Source: a virus. From it: 64,000 nt of DNA. Under the pieces are notes generated by a model. It was not told where the DNA came from and did not search any database. It worked only from the letters and a program-made list of their open reading frames with translations. The position numbers and the translations under genes are program-made. The stretch is from IMG/VR virus record IMGVR_UViG_3300043427_001127, positions 107,626 through 171,625 of that record. One strand, 5' to 3'. Every line of letters begins with the position of its first letter. Within the stretch, counting starts at the first letter, position 1. Shown here in pieces: positions 26,121 to 35,970 of this stretch.

Positions 26121-26750
26121 ATGGCAACAACAGGAATCAACTCATTACTTGCCATGATTTCAGATGGCAAAGGTATGGCTACTAGCAATAACTTTGCTGT
26201 TACTATAGATTTTTCTGGTGCTTCTGTTAGTTCTGTGGTTGGGTCAAAATGGTCTTATGATGGTACTGCTTCTGCGGATGAAACGAGAATGATGATTTTT
26301 TGTGATGAAGTAGCTCTTCCTGGATATCAACTTGCCACAGGATCTGTAACAAGATATAGTGGTGACGCTCCTGTTTATTATCCTACTGCTCCAATCTACA
26401 ATGATATCCAGTTGTCGTTCATGTGTGATGCTAAAATGACACCAATGCATAAGTTACATCAGTGGATGGAATATATTTTTGAAGACAATGGAACTAATGG
26501 AAATGAAACTGGAAGGAGAGTTAGATATCCAAAAGATTATCAGGCAAAAATAATCATAAAAAAGACTGAGAGATCTAGAGATAGTGATAACGGTGCTATA
26601 TCTTCTGTATTTACTTTATATAATGCGTGGCCTTACACCATAGATGCTGTTCCTTTGTCCTATGGGTCATCGCAGTTAGTAAAAGTGAATGCAAACTTTT
26701 ACTATAAAAAGTTTAAAAGAGAAACTGATACTCTTAAAAACAGAGGATAA
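26121..26750 (+). CDS. Tail tube family protein (gp19/gp54-like)
   Basis: C..V.LPG, W...I, YP.DY, L.NAWP..I..V.LSY. Confidence 0.8.
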   Translation: MATTGINSLLAMISDGKGMATSNNFAVTIDFSGASVSSVVGSKWSYDGTASADETRMMIFCDEVALPGYQLATGSVTRYSGDAPVYYPTAPIYNDIQLSFMCDAKMTPMHKLHQWMEYIFEDNGTNGNETGRRVRYPKDYQAKIIIKKTERSRDSDNGAISSVFTLYNAWPYTIDAVPLSYGSSQLVKVNANFYYKKFKRETDTLKNRG

Positions 26751-26785: not shown

Positions 26786-27502
26786 ATGGCTTTACCAAAA
26801 CCCCCAGTGCCTACCTATGAGTTGGAACTACCATCAACAGGTAAGACTATTAAGTATAGACCATTCCTTGTAAAAGAAGAAAAGATTCTTCTTATGGCAA
26901 TGGAATCGCAAGAGGAAAAACAAATCACAGATGCTGTAGTTAATATTGTAAAGGACTGTGTTCTTACTAGAGGAATCAAAGTAACTGAACTTGCTTCTTT
27001 TGATATTGAATATTTGTTCTTAAACATTCGTGCCAAATCTGTTGGCGAAACAGTTAAGATGAAAATCACATGTGAAGATGATGGTCAGACACAAGTAGAT
27101 TATGAGTTGGATATTAATGAGGTAAAAGTTATCAAAGATTCTAAACATAATAATAAGATTATGCTTTCGGATGATTCTGGATTGATTATGAAGTATCCTG
27201 GTATGGAACAGTTTATTCAGACTCAGATTATGATGAAGAGTTTGAATGCCGAAGAAGTATTTGATATTATTATTGATTCAGTAGATCAGATTTTTGTTGG
27301 TGATGATGTTTATGAAGCAAAGACAACTTCCAAAAAAGAAATCGAAGAGTGGGTTGGTGGTATGACATCAAAACAGTTTGAGAAAGTTAAAGATTTCTTT
27401 GCAACAATGCCAAAACTATCTCACACTTTTAAAATAGTTAATCCAAACACAGAAGTTGAATCTGAATATACTATTGAGGGTCTGGTAAATTTTTTCGGGT
27501 AA
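26786..27502 (+). CDS. gp26: Baseplate hub assembly protein gp26
   Basis: LP....PTYELELPSTG..IKYRPFLVKEEKILL, FDIEYLFL.IRAKSVGE, EGL..FF. Confidence 0.93.
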   Translation: MALPKPPVPTYELELPSTGKTIKYRPFLVKEEKILLMAMESQEEKQITDAVVNIVKDCVLTRGIKVTELASFDIEYLFLNIRAKSVGETVKMKITCEDDGQTQVDYELDINEVKVIKDSKHNNKIMLSDDSGLIMKYPGMEQFIQTQIMMKSLNAEEVFDIIIDSVDQIFVGDDVYEAKTTSKKEIEEWVGGMTSKQFEKVKDFFATMPKLSHTFKIVNPNTEVESEYTIEGLVNFFG

Positions 27503-27504
27503 GC

Positions 27505-27684
27505 ATGTTCCATGAAACTCTGGTGAACCATTACCAGTCTAACTTTAACTTGATGTATCATCATAAGTTTTCATTAACTGAGTTAGAGAACATGCTTCCG
27601 TGGGAAAGAATCGTTTATGTTACTATGCTTAATGCATATATCGAAGAACAAAACGAAAAAGCAAGACAGAAAGCAATGCGATGA
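27505..27684 (+). CDS. gp51: Baseplate hub assembly catalyst gp51 (59 aa; may be made as a -1 frameshift extension of gp26)
   Basis: Manual translation: NF.LM.HHK.SLTELENMLPWER..Y. Confidence 0.85.
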   Translation: MFHETLVNHYQSNFNLMYHHKFSLTELENMLPWERIVYVTMLNAYIEEQNEKARQKAMR

Positions 27685-30362
27685 ATCCCGAAGACTTAGA
27701 TTTAGATTTGCCACAACCACCCGAGGGAGTACTAGATCCTAGTAATCCTTGGTATAGTGCTAAGGTTGGCGAAAGGACATGGATGCTTCTTAAAGCCAAG
27801 TTAACTGGCAGGAAGATGAATGATGGCACACAGTATTCATCCACTGTTAATTTAACTGAAGCAGATGCTGATAAGTTAATAGAAAATCTAAAGAAAGATC
27901 CTAGAGGATATCCTCAGTTTAATGATGGGGGTGGTGGACTTAAGTTTTATGAAAACTATGAGGCATATCAAGGGTGGTTGGTAGAAGAGTATCTTGAGAA
28001 ACCATTTCGCAAACAGGTTGACGCGAAGATAGAAGAAGCTGAGATACAAAGAGTAATAAATCAAAGAAAAGAATCAAAAGTTCAACCAATGACTCTTTTG
28101 ATTCCTTCAAAAAAGGAAGAAGACCTTTTAAAAGTACCAGAAATAAAAGAAGAACCTGTTGAGGAACCTGAAGAATCACCTCAAGAAACTATAACGGAAC
28201 AACAAATACCAGAACCTGTTGCTGAACCACAAACAGAACCTGTGTCAGCATCGATACCTCTTCCTGCCACATCGCCACCAACATTTGATCCAACTAAGGT
28301 ATTAAACATACCCGAAACTATTCCAGAAAAAGTTCCGAATGGATTAACACAAAACATAACAAAGTTATCCGAGACTTTAGATAATATCAATGCAGAACTA
28401 TCGGCACAGATTGTTCTGATAAGAAAAAGAACATCTATCTTAAAAAAAGATAATGCTGGATTAGAACTTGCCAAGTTTTTAGTTGGTCAACAAATAGAAA
28501 ACTATAGTGAGTTCTTGAATGATTTGGAGTCGCAATCTAGAGAGATAGATTTAGAGGATGGATATGATATTCCTTCTGATGCCGAATCTAAACCTCCAGT
28601 AGACAATCAAGTAGAACCAGAAGGACCACCACCAACACCCGAAAAACCACCAGAAAAACAATGGTGGGAGTTCTGGAAAGAAGATCCAAATAAATCTCCA
28701 AGAAAAGCTTCTTCTGGATTGATGTCAACTGCGATGCCAGCAATGGCAGAAGGTGGTATATCAGCTGGAACTGGACTGAATAACATCATTAAACCAGGAA
28801 TATATGATAATCCTACGGTAGGTAATCTAGCACCAGGAACCGCTATCATACCATTGAATAGAAACTATGGTAAAGATATGTTTGGTAACTATGATGAGAT
28901 TGAATACATGAATGCTTTTGGGGAAGTAATGGCTTCGTCAAGAAAAGCATTACTTGGTTCTGTTCTGACAGTTTATGGAGATATTCTCAGTAGTTTTGGA
29001 CCACTAGCAGGATTTTTTAATAAATCTTTGCCTGGTATACTTCAAGGTGCTGCAAATATTTTGGGAGCACCATTAAATCTTGTTCTTGATATGCTTGGTG
29101 GACCAGCATATGCTGGTACTGTGCCAAATGAGTTGGAAGAAAGAAAGTTTTATAAATCTTGGAAGATTTATTTTGAAGGCAATCGTCTAATATTTGAAGG
29201 TGGTGTGCAAGAAGGAAGTTCTGAAGAAAACCCAACAGGAACTGCTGAGTTTGCAAAAGATATTTTAACTATTGGTCCTGGTGGCGAGGGTCTCGGTGGC
29301 ATGGGTGGTACTAATGTGTCTAAACCACCAGCATGGATTCCATATGCTAAATCAGATTCTGGAAAACTCCATTATATTTCTGGATTTGGTTGGCGTTGGG
29401 GTAGAATGCACACTGGTATTGACTTGGCACCAGCTGGATATGCGCCATTAAAACTAATCTCTCCTTTTGACGGTAAAGTTTCTGATGTGAACAGAAACTG
29501 GCCTAAAGACGGCGGTGGTGGATATGGAAACTATGTTGAAGTAGAGCATAAAAATCCAAATGTTCATTTATTTTATGGTCACATGAAAGAAGTTTCTGAT
29601 AGTATAAACCAAGGATCTGATGTAAAAGCTGGGCAAGTTTTGGGAACTACAGGAACAACAGGTCGTTCTGAAGGAGTTCACGTACACTGGGAAGTTAGAA
29701 AAGGTAGTTGGGGGCAGCAGGTAGATCCAGTTGAATGGACTCATCAAAATAAACCAAGCTTTGCTAAAGGTGGAAGTTGGCAACTGCCATCGTTACCCAG
29801 TTTACTTCCATCACCTATTGATTTACTGAAAGGATTATTAAAGTCTAAACAATCTAAAAGAAACTATGGTGCTGATTACAAAAGGCAAGAGTTGATACTT
29901 TCGGCAAAGGCTTCTGGTGGGAGTGGACTTGCAGATATTAGAGGCAATCAAAGACCAAGACTCCAACAGTCTGGTAGCATCAGTAGACCTAAAGGTTCTG
30001 TAGTAGTAAAACAAACAGAACCAGAAGTTCCAAAGTTAGATCCAAATCTAACAGCAATACAAAACTGGACTAAACTATTTCCACAACTTGCTAGAAAAGT
30101 TAAACCAGGGCAGTCTGGATACGATGAGATTCAAAAAGTTTTATCACCACAAACTTCAACTATGCCATCAGCAACTCCAACTACAACAGCAGTTGCTACA
30201 GAATCTAAAGTTCCACCAAAACAAATGACTATGCAGATGCCATCTGCACCTTCTACCCCCACTGTTACACCATCATCTAGTGCATCTTCCGTTTCTTTTG
30301 TTCAACTTGATATGAATACTAATGATGTGAAAGAACTAGTAAAACTTCGTAGAATACAGTGA
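27681..30362 (+). CDS. Hub/tape-measure-like virion protein with M23 peptidase domain
   Basis: HTGIDLA and HVHWEVR M23 motifs, GGYGNYV; AEGG/FAKGG motifs. Confidence 0.75.
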   Translation: MNPEDLDLDLPQPPEGVLDPSNPWYSAKVGERTWMLLKAKLTGRKMNDGTQYSSTVNLTEADADKLIENLKKDPRGYPQFNDGGGGLKFYENYEAYQGWLVEEYLEKPFRKQVDAKIEEAEIQRVINQRKESKVQPMTLLIPSKKEEDLLKVPEIKEEPVEEPEESPQETITEQQIPEPVAEPQTEPVSASIPLPATSPPTFDPTKVLNIPETIPEKVPNGLTQNITKLSETLDNINAELSAQIVLIRKRTSILKKDNAGLELAKFLVGQQIENYSEFLNDLESQSREIDLEDGYDIPSDAESKPPVDNQVEPEGPPPTPEKPPEKQWWEFWKEDPNKSPRKASSGLMSTAMPAMAEGGISAGTGLNNIIKPGIYDNPTVGNLAPGTAIIPLNRNYGKDMFGNYDEIEYMNAFGEVMASSRKALLGSVLTVYGDILSSFGPLAGFFNKSLPGILQGAANILGAPLNLVLDMLGGPAYAGTVPNELEERKFYKSWKIYFEGNRLIFEGGVQEGSSEENPTGTAEFAKDILTIGPGGEGLGGMGGTNVSKPPAWIPYAKSDSGKLHYISGFGWRWGRMHTGIDLAPAGYAPLKLISPFDGKVSDVNRNWPKDGGGGYGNYVEVEHKNPNVHLFYGHMKEVSDSINQGSDVKAGQVLGTTGTTGRSEGVHVHWEVRKGSWGQQVDPVEWTHQNKPSFAKGGSWQLPSLPSLLPSPIDLLKGLLKSKQSKRNYGADYKRQELILSAKASGGSGLADIRGNQRPRLQQSGSISRPKGSVVVKQTEPEVPKLDPNLTAIQNWTKLFPQLARKVKPGQSGYDEIQKVLSPQTSTMPSATPTTTAVATESKVPPKQMTMQMPSAPSTPTVTPSSSASSVSFVQLDMNTNDVKELVKLRRIQ

Positions 30363-30432
30363 TTTCAAAAATGACCCCTAAAAACCAAATTGGTCCAAAA
30401 AAAATCTCGGCAAATTTTTGCCAAAAAAGGTT
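30361..30432. repeat. Phased A/T-tract element, copy 2
   Basis: See 23341-23412; followed by CTAAATA. Confidence 0.65.
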
Positions 30433-30463
30433 TTTCTAAATATTTCAGCTAAGTAGGTCGATT

Positions 30464-33091
30464 ATGGCAAGAACACTAACAGACTATATTTTAGAAAAAG
30501 CATCACAAAAGCGAGATGATGCGAAAAAGTCTGATAGCAAAAAATCTAAAAAAGACAAAAAATCTCAATCTGGTACTTTGGTTGAGTTTTTGCTCGACCG
30601 AAAAAATACATCAAAATCTTCAAAAACAGGTAAATCTAACAAAAAAGGGGAAACTTTAACTGAGTATATTGTATCGAAGATTACTGATAAAAAAAAGAAG
30701 GAAGAAACGAAAAAACAGCAATCTCAAACGTCTTTTGTAGAAAGTTTAAATCAATCTTTTAGAATGTTGTCTAGAAAGACCGAAGAGATGAAGTCTCTAG
30801 TAAGTCAGCAAAGAAAACTTCTAGAACAACAATCAGAAGAAGAAAACTTATTAGCAGTAAATGTTTCTATTTTAGAAGATCTTTTTGCACATAGAGCAAA
30901 GTTAGAAAAACAAGTATTTCTCTCTGTAGCACATAGATTTTCGGATTTTCCTGAAGATATACCAGAACCATCAAATAATGAAAATGACGATGAACCAGAA
31001 GAATCAGATGATAGTTCAAATGATAATGATAGTTCTTCGTCTGCTCCAGATAAACCAGACTCCCCACCGCCCAGCACGCCATCCGCTCCACCCACATCAC
31101 CAGATAAAAAAGCAGAAGGTGGTATAACTCCAGCGCAACCAACACAAAAACAATCCAAGAAATCTAAAACACAGTCTTTGGTTCCTTATGCTGATGTCAT
31201 GCAGTTAGGAATGCAGGCATCGGGAATGGCAGCTATCAACACAGTTGCTGAGTTGATGAAAAAATCTGGTGCATTAGGTGGATTTTTTGTTCCCTACATT
31301 AAATCTTTAGTCACTCCATTTGGTGTGGCAATGGGTATTGGTGAGAGTGTAATAAGCAGTTTATTGGGTGGATCCGCTAGGGCAGCAACTTTAGAAATGA
31401 ATGCAGCTCAAAAAGATTTTGGTAAAACTTGGCGTTCTTTCCTAGGCGATGAAAACTTTATTGCTAAGTTTATTGATAGAACAACTACAGGAGTAATGGA
31501 TCAACTTGATAATGTAGTTCCTCAAGAACTTACTGGAGACTTAGCGCAGAAGTCTTTACAGTTTGCAAAATACTTGATGTCCAAGCATGGACTTAAAGAT
31601 TTCCAAGCTGCTGCTATTGTTGGTGTTATGCTTCGTGAAGGATTTGGTAGTGGAAAACCTGATGTGCGAGAAGGAGGACAACGTGGAGCTCCTACTTACG
31701 ATGGCACTAGTCAAATGGGTTATGGTTGGATTCAGTGGACAAATACTCAAGGTGGTGGACCAAATGATAGACTGAACAGAGTTCTGATACATCTTGGTAT
31801 GGGACCACCACCAAAGAAAACAAGACCATGGACTGATATGGATAATATCAAGGCTATGGAATATGAATGGCAAAATCACTACACTAAAACTATTCCTGCT
31901 GTAAAAGGAACTAGTAATATAACCGATGCTGTTTATGAATTTGTTGGAAACTATACTGCAGGCAGTCACGCAAACATTTCTACTTATCAAAATAGAGAAG
32001 ATAAATCTGGCGGTGGGTTTATTGGAAGAAGAAACTCATCTGCTGCTGGAGTGCTAAAACTATTTCAGAGTGGTGATACAAAAAATGCAAAATTATTTGA
32101 AAGGGGTGGACTTGAAGGAAACAAATCTTCTTTATTAAACTCTTACATTGTAGATGGTCCTGAAAGTGGATTTTCTGCCAATATTCAAGGATTGCCAGTT
32201 ACTCTACACGGTAAAGAGATCGTTCGCGTGTTTGATGGTGGATTTGAAGTTTATCCTCTAGAAAACAGAGAATATAGCATAAAAGAGGATCCGATGGGAG
32301 TGATGCAAAGATGGTCAGAAATCGCATCTGGATTGGATGCAAAGATTTCTTCATATTTTGCTGCTGGTGGAGTTTCTGAAGGAGTTAAAGCAATCAAACA
32401 TGACGAGGCATTATCTTCGCTTTCTAGAGGAAGAAATGACTATATCGTAAATCGCGGACCTAGTGTTATTTCATCTGTACCATGGTCAAAAGTATCTGCA
32501 TCTACTCCTTTGTATGCTTATGAAACTGGAGTTTCTGGAGATAGAACTACGATTGGATGGGGTATGACATATTATGATTCTATTACTGCAGGTAGAAAAG
32601 CAGTTAAACCAGGGGATGTTATAACAAAGGCAAAAGCAGATTCTTTATTAATGGGATTAGTTAATAACTATGTGAATACATTGAAGGGGCAAAAATGGTA
32701 TCAAAAATATTGGAATAAGATGTCTGCTAAACAGCAAGGTGGATTACTTGCTTATGGTTATAATCAACCAGCACATTTACTTGGAACTGGTGCTCCCAAG
32801 ATGTATGCTGCTTTGAATAGGGGAGATATGAATGCTGTGGCAGCAAATATTGATAGAGGACTCCCAGCGAGAGAAAAAAATGAAAAAGCGTTGGTTCTTT
32901 CTGGTCCGAGAAATCTAAATACGGCAACATCATCTAAACCAGATAGACAAGTAGTTGTAAATCGTGTTGGTGGTGGAACTTCTCAACCTAGAGTATCCAC
33001 ATCTTCTCGTAGAGCAAATACATCTTCTCCTTCATTCTCTTTTGATCCTCTTAGATTTATAAGAGAGTTAACTATGCAACGCACTCGATAA
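30464..33091 (+). CDS. Hub/tape-measure-like virion protein with phage-tail-lysozyme-like and GH24-like domains
   Basis: QAAAIVGVMLRE...GYGWIQWT; IKHDE...AY...TIGWG.T. Confidence 0.7.
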   Translation: MARTLTDYILEKASQKRDDAKKSDSKKSKKDKKSQSGTLVEFLLDRKNTSKSSKTGKSNKKGETLTEYIVSKITDKKKKEETKKQQSQTSFVESLNQSFRMLSRKTEEMKSLVSQQRKLLEQQSEEENLLAVNVSILEDLFAHRAKLEKQVFLSVAHRFSDFPEDIPEPSNNENDDEPEESDDSSNDNDSSSSAPDKPDSPPPSTPSAPPTSPDKKAEGGITPAQPTQKQSKKSKTQSLVPYADVMQLGMQASGMAAINTVAELMKKSGALGGFFVPYIKSLVTPFGVAMGIGESVISSLLGGSARAATLEMNAAQKDFGKTWRSFLGDENFIAKFIDRTTTGVMDQLDNVVPQELTGDLAQKSLQFAKYLMSKHGLKDFQAAAIVGVMLREGFGSGKPDVREGGQRGAPTYDGTSQMGYGWIQWTNTQGGGPNDRLNRVLIHLGMGPPPKKTRPWTDMDNIKAMEYEWQNHYTKTIPAVKGTSNITDAVYEFVGNYTAGSHANISTYQNREDKSGGGFIGRRNSSAAGVLKLFQSGDTKNAKLFERGGLEGNKSSLLNSYIVDGPESGFSANIQGLPVTLHGKEIVRVFDGGFEVYPLENREYSIKEDPMGVMQRWSEIASGLDAKISSYFAAGGVSEGVKAIKHDEALSSLSRGRNDYIVNRGPSVISSVPWSKVSASTPLYAYETGVSGDRTTIGWGMTYYDSITAGRKAVKPGDVITKAKADSLLMGLVNNYVNTLKGQKWYQKYWNKMSAKQQGGLLAYGYNQPAHLLGTGAPKMYAALNRGDMNAVAANIDRGLPAREKNEKALVLSGPRNLNTATSSKPDRQVVVNRVGGGTSQPRVSTSSRRANTSSPSFSFDPLRFIRELTMQRTR

Positions 33092-33117
33092 ATATCAATA
33101 TAAAGTAGGGTCGATAA

Positions 33118-35970
33118 ATGTCTTTTGGCATAGAGCAATCACAAAAAACAGGTGGTCAAACATTGGGAGGATTCATAGCTGGCAAAGCTATGCAATCTAG
33201 AGATGATGCAAAAAAAGAAAAAGAAAAGCAACAAAAGATAGAAGAAAAGGGCGGCGAAGTAAACGAAGAAGACAAAAAGGGATTATTTAAAAAAGCTCTC
33301 GCTCATAACTTTGGTGGTGGATTTTTATCTGGTAAAAAATCTTTTGGCGAAAACTTTAACTATAAAATGCCACCCAAACCAGAATCATCTGGATCATCTT
33401 CTTCCGCGTCAGGTGCTGGTGGTGGATCTGGTGGTGCTGGAAAAGGACTAGCGAAGATTCTTACTGGAGGATTTGGTTCTCTGGTAGCAGATACTACGGC
33501 TATTCAGGGGGGTTTGTCTGCGATTACGCAACTATTAAACTCTCAGTTGCAGTCTAGTAGTTTCACTTCTAACGGTATATCTGGTATTCAGGCGATTTTA
33601 GCAGATCAACTTGAATCTCAAGGTCAGATGATAGAGTTGATGGGAGGCGAAAGACCATCTTCAAGTGCTGCTGCTGGCGCTTCTGGTATGTTTGGCATGT
33701 CCCAATCATCTAAAACTGGTGGCGAAACTTTAACTGGATTTATAGCAGAAAAATGGCAACAGATTCAGGGAGTTATTAGTTTTGTTTCTGGATTGATGTC
33801 TGGTGGTGGTATAACTGGACTGATTGCAAGAATGCTTCCTGGTCCTGTTGCAAACATATTGGGTCTTGGTGGAGCGCAAGGAGCAGCTGCGGCAGGAGGT
33901 GGCGCTGCAGCGGGTGGTGGAGTTACTGCAGGAGCAGTTGCGACTGGTGCCGCTGCTACTGCCGCTGTTGCTGGTACGGGACTTGCTGCTAGTGCTGTAG
34001 GCGAAGCAACAAGAGGTCTTGGAGATCAATGGAGAAACCTAGACAATAAAAAGAAAAAGGAAATTTTAAAGAATCCATTTTTGAATACATTTTTAATGAT
34101 GCCGCCACTTACGCCAGTAGGTATTGCAGCACAGACTGGTATGATACCAGATCAGTTATTGGACATGACTGAAGACCCTATTGCTCGCGTTTTGGATGGA
34201 AACTCTGCAATAGCAGAAACTATTGGAGCTCCATTTAGGGCAATATTTGAACTTATTATGGCTGGTGGTGATGTGAGTAAATCAAATGCCAAGATGGCAG
34301 AGATTGACGCAAACCTTCGTGAAAACTTCCGTCAAGCTTTTGATCCAAATGGAAAGAAAGGATCCTGGGGATCTGCATGGGGTAATGAATATGGCACTGC
34401 TGAGTCTAGAATAACAAAGAATGCATCTGGATCTGTGATGCTTGGGGAAGCGGGTAAAGAAGCAGTTGTAGATTTGCATAGTGCGGATGCTGCTGGCATG
34501 GAAGGCACTCAAGACCCTGGCATGAAGGCGTCTGGAGCATCTATGCTTGCTGTGGTTGACCAGTTTGTGAAAGGAATGGGACCACTTGGAGCACCAGTTG
34601 CACAAGCATTGGGACCAGATGTTCAGAATCTTGCAAGACAGTTTGGTATGTCACAAACTCTACCAAACTTAAAAATAGGTGGTGGTAAGTTCAAAGAGGA
34701 TGGAAAATCAAGAAGAGAAAAAAACAAGTTTTTAGAGAATCTTATTTCTGGATCTTTAGAAGCATTAGGTGCTAAAAAGAAAGAGGATAAGCAGACAACG
34801 CCAGGTGGAGCTCCAGCTCCAACAGGAGACGCAAATCAACAAAGATCGCAAGAAAGACAAGAAGATACAAGACAAACACTTGAAAGTATTCCTGGTGCTG
34901 GTGCTGCAATGGAAAGACCTGATCCAGAAGGCATTAAAAAAGCGGAAGGCGAACAAGCAATGATGACTACTGGTAAGGTGAAAGGAACTCAAGTTAAACT
35001 AGGTACTGGTGATAAATTAACTGTTCCTAGCGCAGATTTGAATCCTGTTGAAGGCAGTAACGGTAAGTATTGGTATGATAACAAAGGACAGATATATAAA
35101 TGGCGACCAGGGGAGCAAGTTGTACAACTATACTTAGACGAAATACAGAAGCAAGGAAAAGCTGATAGTTTTGATTTGGTGAGGAATACAACAACTGGTG
35201 TTGTAAGAAGAGTCAGTACCCAAAGAGATTGGAATCCATTTAATAATGCCAGCATTATTAAAAATGGCGAATACAGTTATAGAGCAAATGATAAGTTGAT
35301 TGATAATAGAAATGGAACACCAGTTTGGTCTAGACAAACTGAGAAACAAGATTTAGGTGGATTGCATGGACCAGAAATAGCAATACCAAAACAAAGTAGT
35401 TTAACTTCTTTTGAAGATGGTGGATGGTTCCAACGTCTCACAAGATGGTTGACAACTCCAATGGGTCAAGGCGCTTCTGATAAGGCAGTTTCTTCCCTGC
35501 AAAGATCTGCTAGTGCTGGAAATATGGGAAGCACTGCACAAGGTCTCAGTAATAGGAGAGCAGCAACTGATGCTGCCATTAGAGAAATGCTGGGTCATGA
35601 AAAGGGTGGTTCTATGTTTGGTGTTACTCAACATAACAAAATCACCATTGAACAAAGGATGGATGATATTGAGAAGATGACAAAAATGTTGGCTTCCATG
35701 GTTGGATCAACTACTAGTGCTGCTGGACCATCTTCTACTTCATCTGCTCCTAAGGTTTCTGCTCCAGCATCTCCAGTAACAGCAACAGATCAAGTTGCTG
35801 ATGAGATGTCTGAAATGGCAGTTATTAATGTTATCCAATCTGGCGGTTCTTCTCCTACTATTCCAGTTGAGCAAGAATCACCTCAAAATAGTACAGATTA
35901 TATTGCAGATCCCTCTTCTAGTGGTCTAGCTTCAGTTCTTTGTATGTCTTCACCTTGGGGGGCGATGTAA
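33118..35970 (+). CDS. Hub/tape-measure-like virion protein (Gly/Ala-rich)
   Basis: GEAGKEAVV.L motif, paralogous segments with the two preceding ORFs. Confidence 0.65.
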   Translation: MSFGIEQSQKTGGQTLGGFIAGKAMQSRDDAKKEKEKQQKIEEKGGEVNEEDKKGLFKKALAHNFGGGFLSGKKSFGENFNYKMPPKPESSGSSSSASGAGGGSGGAGKGLAKILTGGFGSLVADTTAIQGGLSAITQLLNSQLQSSSFTSNGISGIQAILADQLESQGQMIELMGGERPSSSAAAGASGMFGMSQSSKTGGETLTGFIAEKWQQIQGVISFVSGLMSGGGITGLIARMLPGPVANILGLGGAQGAAAAGGGAAAGGGVTAGAVATGAAATAAVAGTGLAASAVGEATRGLGDQWRNLDNKKKKEILKNPFLNTFLMMPPLTPVGIAAQTGMIPDQLLDMTEDPIARVLDGNSAIAETIGAPFRAIFELIMAGGDVSKSNAKMAEIDANLRENFRQAFDPNGKKGSWGSAWGNEYGTAESRITKNASGSVMLGEAGKEAVVDLHSADAAGMEGTQDPGMKASGASMLAVVDQFVKGMGPLGAPVAQALGPDVQNLARQFGMSQTLPNLKIGGGKFKEDGKSRREKNKFLENLISGSLEALGAKKKEDKQTTPGGAPAPTGDANQQRSQERQEDTRQTLESIPGAGAAMERPDPEGIKKAEGEQAMMTTGKVKGTQVKLGTGDKLTVPSADLNPVEGSNGKYWYDNKGQIYKWRPGEQVVQLYLDEIQKQGKADSFDLVRNTTTGVVRRVSTQRDWNPFNNASIIKNGEYSYRANDKLIDNRNGTPVWSRQTEKQDLGGLHGPEIAIPKQSSLTSFEDGGWFQRLTRWLTTPMGQGASDKAVSSLQRSASAGNMGSTAQGLSNRRAATDAAIREMLGHEKGGSMFGVTQHNKITIEQRMDDIEKMTKMLASMVGSTTSAAGPSSTSSAPKVSAPASPVTATDQVADEMSEMAVINVIQSGGSSPTIPVEQESPQNSTDYIADPSSSGLASVLCMSSPWGAM

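Follow-up and report, generated by a model that had tools for sequence, protein, structure and literature searches.

A conserved slippery heptamer at the end of gp26 suggests that a T4-like cyanophage makes two forms of a tail assembly chaperone by -1 frameshifting

In a 64,000-nucleotide stretch of viral DNA (the window; positions 107,626 to 171,625 of IMG/VR record IMGVR_UViG_3300043427_001127), the gene gp26 is followed closely by a small open reading frame, gp51, that lies in the -1 frame, which raises the question of whether these are two genes or one gene whose ribosomes sometimes change frame just before its stop codon. Tail assembly chaperones (TACs) of the G/GT type are encoded between the tail tube and tape measure genes, and their products are made in a fixed low ratio, are needed for tail assembly and are absent from virions. 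The lambda gpG/gpGT pair reportedly arises by a -1 frameshift, a finding that is said to go back to Levin in 1993 and to Xu, Hendrix and Duda in 2004. The original prediction for this locus was that gp26 and gp51 follow the same logic.

The end of gp26, divided in the gp26 frame, reads GGT CTG GTA AAT TTT TTC GGG TAA GC ATG (27479 to 27507). It had been proposed that two overlapping X_XXY_YYZ heptamers lie here in the zero frame, and we confirmed both, and their positions, in the sequence. The gp26 stop TAA occupies 27500 to 27502, and the gp51 ORF (27505 to 27684; 59 aa), which matches phrog_634, 'baseplate hub assembly catalyst' (E 2.2e-22), is in the -1 frame relative to gp26. As predicted, that frame is open from the slip site; indeed, it is free of stops from about 27475 across the slip site and reads ...GSGKFFRVSMFHETL. 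A slip at T_TTT_TTC is predicted to give a product of 237 + 62 = 299 residues, in agreement with the fusion of about 300 aa first suggested, and the shifted product would include the tryptic peptide IVNPNTEVESEYTIEGLVNFFR as well as another peptide beginning VSMFHETLVNHYQSNFNLMYHHK. The features of the locus are as follows.

26121 to 26750, plus strand: tail-tube-like gene, the immediate upstream neighbor of gp26 (PF23849 Phage_TTP_2, E 5.5e-36; phrog_45 tail tube)
26786 to 27502, plus strand: gp26, predicted short zero-frame form of the TAC, 238 aa (PF12322; phrog_150, baseplate hub)
27487 to 27493, plus strand: A_AAT_TTT, second heptamer, not conserved and probably irrelevant
27490 to 27496, plus strand: T_TTT_TTC slippery heptamer, the conserved putative -1 shift site
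27496 to 27684, plus strand: -1-frame extension, 62 sense codons plus TGA (phrog_634, E 2.2e-22)
27505 to 27507, plus strand: annotated start (ATG) of gp51, an internal start that is optional and specific to the clade
27681 to 30362, plus strand: gene for an 893-aa protein with an M23 peptidase domain (PF01551, E 3.1e-20), a candidate tape measure or ejected tail protein

Ahead of the gp51 ATG stand only the letters GGGTAAGC. The view that this ATG lacks a convincing Shine-Dalgarno sequence seems fair to us, although its position, 2 nt downstream of the gp26 stop, makes reinitiation possible. We also note that TTTTTTC occurs 30 times in the window compared to 26.8 expected; because this count is not above chance, the weight that we give the heptamer comes only from its conservation in relatives.

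We consider it very likely that gp26 encodes the TAC of this T4-like cyanophage and that it is made in a short and a long form through a -1 slip; what we infer is the slip, along with how efficient it is and how the two forms share the work. Most ribosomes would read gp26 to the TAA at 27500, yielding the 238-aa short form, while a minority would slip by -1 with two tRNA-Phe on the UUU-UUC of U_UUU_UUC (27490 to 27496) and go on through the 'gp51' region, yielding a 299-aa long form made of gp26 residues 1 to 237 and 62 further residues. UUU-UUC would be a near-ideal tandem slip site, because both tRNA-Phe can re-pair on UUU-UUU. The short and long forms would be the counterparts of lambda gpG and gpGT, with the 62-residue tail as the 'T' part of GT. 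In this scheme, coating of the tape-measure or hub protein would fall to the TAC domain that both forms have at the N-terminus, and the C-terminal tail of the rare long form would serve to recruit tube or hub subunits. In T4, the same pair would come from two paralogous genes, 26 and 51. This model is supported by the sequence signature at the junction, by the missing gp51 starts in most relatives, by the fold of gp26 and by the architecture of the T4 proteins, each of which we take up below.

We scanned IMG/VR with gp26 and obtained 80 loci, the window included (79 relatives), with gp26 identities from 91% down to 42%, and we also compared nine named phages of other families; the statements on the junction apply to every locus that extends to it. 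A comparison of gp26-gp51 junctions among relatives had been proposed as a check on the original prediction; in this comparison, both the heptamer and the -1 register were kept, and most relatives lacked a gp51 start. We found a gp51 homologue in the -1 register in 79/79 IMG/VR loci and in the nine named phages, and the -1 frame was open at the junction in all of these. The in-frame heptamer was TTTTTTC in 78 of the 80 loci (window counted) and TTTTTTT in 2/80. The codon preceding the Phe-Phe pair encodes D, N, S or A, but its third base is always T. Codon choice at the pair itself was nearly fixed, with TTT for Phe236 in 65/65 genes and TTC for Phe237 in 64/65, whereas TTC makes up 22% of all Phe codons in these gp26 genes and the other invariant Phe columns use a mixture of TTT and TTC (49/15, 46/19 and 33/32). 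The NNT TTT TTC pattern thus runs contrary to the local codon bias.

The -1 frame is conserved from the heptamer onward. The C of TTC doubles as the first base of a nearly invariant -1-frame Arg codon, which indicates that reading in the -1 frame begins precisely here. From the heptamer, the conserved -1 peptide is FFR[IV]x[LM]xH..L.NY..NF.L..HHKYSL.E.E.M.PWER, and variability in this frame is highest at third codon positions (0.36 vs 0.23 and 0.16). A start codon at the position of the window's ATG was present in only 11/69 distinct contexts; elsewhere this codon mostly encodes Leu (CTC, CTT or TTA), and in 17/69 distinct contexts there is no ATG, GTG or TTG within the first 25 codons. Moreover, in several loci a -1-frame stop is found immediately 5' of the T run, and a stop that abuts the heptamer in this way would confine the shift to T_TTT_TTC. 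In one relative (L044, 2205 to 2333), the -1 tail is only 43 residues long, with PWER lost after ...YSLTEL, probably as the result of an indel or an assembly error in the metagenomic contig.

The two heptamers of the original prediction fared differently in this analysis: T_TTT_TTC was conserved, but A_AAT_TTT was present in only 16/80 loci. We rejected A_AAT_TTT as the shift site, since AAT precedes the Phe-Phe pair only in those 16 loci and since a -1-frame stop blocks a shift there in several relatives.

The relationship to T4 bears on what the predicted long form would be. Window gp26 matched PF12322 (T4_baseplate) with an E of 6.5e-69, residues 9 to 237 aligning with positions 2 to 218 of the 219 in the profile. 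This family is matched over its full length by both T4 gp26 (residues 1 to 206) and T4 gp51 (residues 1 to 201), and T4 gp51 has a C-terminal tail of 48 residues past the PF12322 domain. Pairwise alignment of the T4 gp51 tail with the cyanophage -1 tail gave an E of 0.005, and hhalign of the -1 tail profile against T4 gp51 residues 200 to 244 gave an E of 1.9e-4 at a modest probability of 48%; the profile alignment on T4 gp51 begins exactly where PF12322 ends. As judged from these alignments, the predicted 299-aa fusion has the same architecture as T4 gp51, a PF12322 domain followed by a homologous C-terminal tail.

T4 gp26 (208 aa) also ends in GLKEFF, as window gp26 does in similar form. However, T4 gp26 and T4 gp51 (249 aa) are encoded by divergently transcribed genes, whereas here a single gene would supply both forms by recoding. 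In addition, the slippery codons are absent from T4, in which the Phe-Phe pair is TTC TTT (L083, 5803 to 5830, minus strand). This difference would fit a loss of the slippery site in T4 once gp51 had become a separate full-length gene.

We take HK97 gp13, YqbN and Rbstp2171 to be examples of the TAC fold. The AF2 model of gp26 had a pLDDT of 87.9 and a pTM of 0.82, and when we searched 48,161 representative chains with this model, the top three matches were 3FGX (Z 8.0), 2OB9 (Z 7.5) and 3KLU (Z 7.0), with 85 to 86 residues aligned at an rmsd of 3.8 to 4.3 and with only model residues 1 to 91 involved. These three structures have been named as phage tail assembly chaperones (PMC9603447). Unrelated chains in the same search had a Z of 4.5 or less; the TAC matches are moderate and are to the N-terminal third of gp26. 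A Foldseek search of the PDB with the gp26 model returned nothing at an E of 0.001 or better, and its top rows include the HK97 tail assembly chaperone 2OB9 as a weak local match. In Pfam, at E values up to 10, there was no match to a Phage_TAC family for gp26, T4 gp26 or T4 gp51. The proposed analogy to lambda G/GT is supported by the N-terminal TAC match of gp26, by the tube-like gene upstream and by the architecture of T4 gp51.

Three tandem genes of about 900 codons lie 3' of the chaperone (window 27681 to 35970); an M23 peptidase domain was found in one, a tail lysozyme plus a phage lysozyme domain in another, and none was detected in the third. The M23 domain alone carries the tape-measure PHROG matches of the 893-aa protein, and similarity to T4 gp29 was not detectable in any of the three long proteins. 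The pair might chaperone all three, as first proposed.

Among the named phages, we found a shared layout in which a T run 10 nt ahead of the gp26 stop is followed by a -1 tail of 55 to 65 aa. This layout is present in Sinorhizobium phiM12, Desulfovibrio phage 7757, Stenotrophomonas Yut3, Acidovorax ACP17, Aeromonas 65, Vibrio D491s and Rhizobium RHph_Y68, the last with the heptamer variant T_TTT_TTG. The -1 tails of the named phages carry a P[FW]E motif, and an ATG is often absent. A tail-tube-like upstream neighbor is likewise found in phiM12, Vibrio D491s, Aeromonas 65 and Rhizobium Y68. Four of these phages, namely phiM12, Stenotrophomonas Yut3, Vibrio D491s and Rhizobium Y68, have a stop codon that overlaps a start (TGATG, TAATG).

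There were two kinds of exception to this layout. In T4 and Klebsiella Kpn BM7, the two genes are separate and divergent, and Phe-Phe is encoded by TTC TTT. Vibrio phage 207E48.1 (Ackermannviridae; L091, 2180 to 2402) has no in-frame heptamer, its gp26-like gene ending ...CTT TTT CGG TAA. The homologous tail ORF of this phage has an ATG ATG start that overlaps the gp26-like stop. The Ackermannviridae lineage to which it belongs may have swapped frameshifting for reinitiation.

We also looked for elements that could stimulate a shift. In the window, the 80 nt downstream were predicted to fold no better than shuffled sequences (z -0.34), and a fold of the alignment of relatives was empty of conserved downstream RNA structure. 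A stimulatory stem-loop of the dnaX type, 5 to 9 nt past the heptamer, was likewise not conserved, a hairpin being found in a subgroup only. This hairpin has a 6-bp, GC-rich stem (GCCTCT or CCCTCT, a 13-nt loop, then AGAGGC or GGAGGG) and starts 6 nt past the site, occupying a region about 13 to 38 nt after the heptamer; a distance of 6 nt is canonical for frameshift stimulators. It is carried by L010 to L014, L042, L043, L059, L071, L072 and L080, while the clade of the window is without it. Upstream, about 10 nt ahead of the site, an SD-like GG is invariant, but we do not count it as evidence, because it is explained by a conserved Gly-Leu motif that T4 gp26 has too.

What is conserved is a homopolymeric run of T, seven T long in two lineages, and this, together with the lack of a conserved stimulatory RNA structure, would be compatible with transcriptional slippage, in which the polymerase adds a U on T6 and gp26 and the tail come to lie in one frame with no shift by the ribosome. 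Nevertheless, the run always falls exactly in the X_XXY_YYZ register, where one tRNA-Phe reads both Phe codons, and a run of six T is short for efficient polymerase slippage. Furthermore, PMC12846349 calls such sites -1 frameshift slippery sequences. On the sequence pattern, slippage by the polymerase on T6 appears less likely than a ribosomal frameshift, and we regard it as improbable.

We think it more improbable still that no recoding occurs at all, such that the gp51 part exists only as a free 59-aa peptide made from ATG 27505 by termination-reinitiation and the heptamer is simply a pair of Phe codons. Such a reading draws on the ATG 2 nt past the TAA, on the stop-start overlaps in four named phages, on the Ackermannviridae phage with its ATG-started tail ORF and no heptamer, and on the abundance of TTTTTTC in the window. 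Yet most relatives have no start codon from which such a peptide could begin, while the peptide upstream of the Met position is conserved. Similarly, the heptamer is retained even where a clade has the ATG, and the choice of codons at the Phe-Phe pair and just before it defies codon bias. The converse case points the same way, in that T4, which has a separate full-length gp51, lost the slippery codons. Ribosomal -1 frameshifting at T_TTT_TTC is therefore the reading that we prefer.

A frameshift of this kind would resemble that of lambda gpG/gpGT in several respects: an X_XXY_YYZ slip a few codons before the chaperone stop, the -1 direction, an abundant short product next to a rare one with a C-terminal extension (predicted here), a gene position behind a tube-like gene and ahead of long tail proteins, and an N-terminal domain with the TAC fold. 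In contrast to a typical G protein, gp26 is about 100 residues longer and has an extra C-terminal beta-rich domain; the extension here is short (62 aa), and the site is U_UUU_UUC rather than the G_GGA_AAG of lambda. The site itself is closer to that of T7 gene 10A/10B, which is also U-rich (G_GUU_UUC), read by tRNA-Phe and responsible for a minor C-extended product, although 10A/10B is a capsid gene, not a chaperone gene, and belongs to an unrelated protein family. The T7 gene 10A/10B site is named alongside T4-like TAC sites in PMC12846349.

The frameshift in T4-like gp26 genes was very probably published already by Vladimirov, Gautam and Davidson (Virology 2022; PMID 34826709), as judged from two papers that cite this work. 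In the PRFect paper (PMC10885494), it is cited for some T4-like phages that, in place of frameshifting, have one short TAC gene and one that is longer and fused, and in PMC12846349, for polyT -1 slippery sequences in T4-like TAC-N genes. There is a smaller possibility that the 2022 paper does not cover recoding in cyanophages, which would hence be undescribed for the Kyanoviridae. Direct literature searches on a gp26/gp51 frameshift in cyanophages returned nothing direct.

If the model holds, the T4 superfamily would rejoin the general rule that long-tailed phages have two tail chaperone forms, and the puzzling genes 26 and 51 of T4 would be explained as the two-gene version of this rule. The remaining value of the finding lies in the correction of genome annotation. 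No slippage is annotated in the GenBank records of these phages; the region is blank in ACG-2014e, and S-PM2 has a separate gp51. Across hundreds of records from cyanophages and other T4-like phages, the gp51 region is either unannotated or given as a separate small gene, where a ribosomal_slippage join would be fitting instead.

Finally, we considered what the ATG at 27505 might contribute. Because it lies 2 nt past the gp26 stop, a free 59-aa peptide is possible in the clade of the window, and initiation there would add to the frameshift rather than replace it. More tentatively, and with some doubt on our part, we suggest that an ATG arose independently at or near the gp26 stop, with the slippery site kept, in the window's clade, S-PM2, phiM12 and the Stenotrophomonas, Vibrio and Rhizobium phages. 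There would then be three products (gp26, the fusion and the free 59-aa tail), with the free tail tuning or competing with the long form, and with coupling to the next gene.

At 27681 to 27684 (ATGA), the -1-frame stop TGA of the window shares bases with the ATG that opens the next long gene, and 27 of the 30 relatives in which a long downstream ORF was found have either such an overlap or a spacing of at most 4 nt (ATGA, TAATG, TAAATG). Only ribosomes that have shifted frame, or that began at the gp51 ATG, would terminate where the next gene starts. Since the -1-frame stop overlaps that start, these may be the ribosomes to which translation of the downstream gene is coupled.
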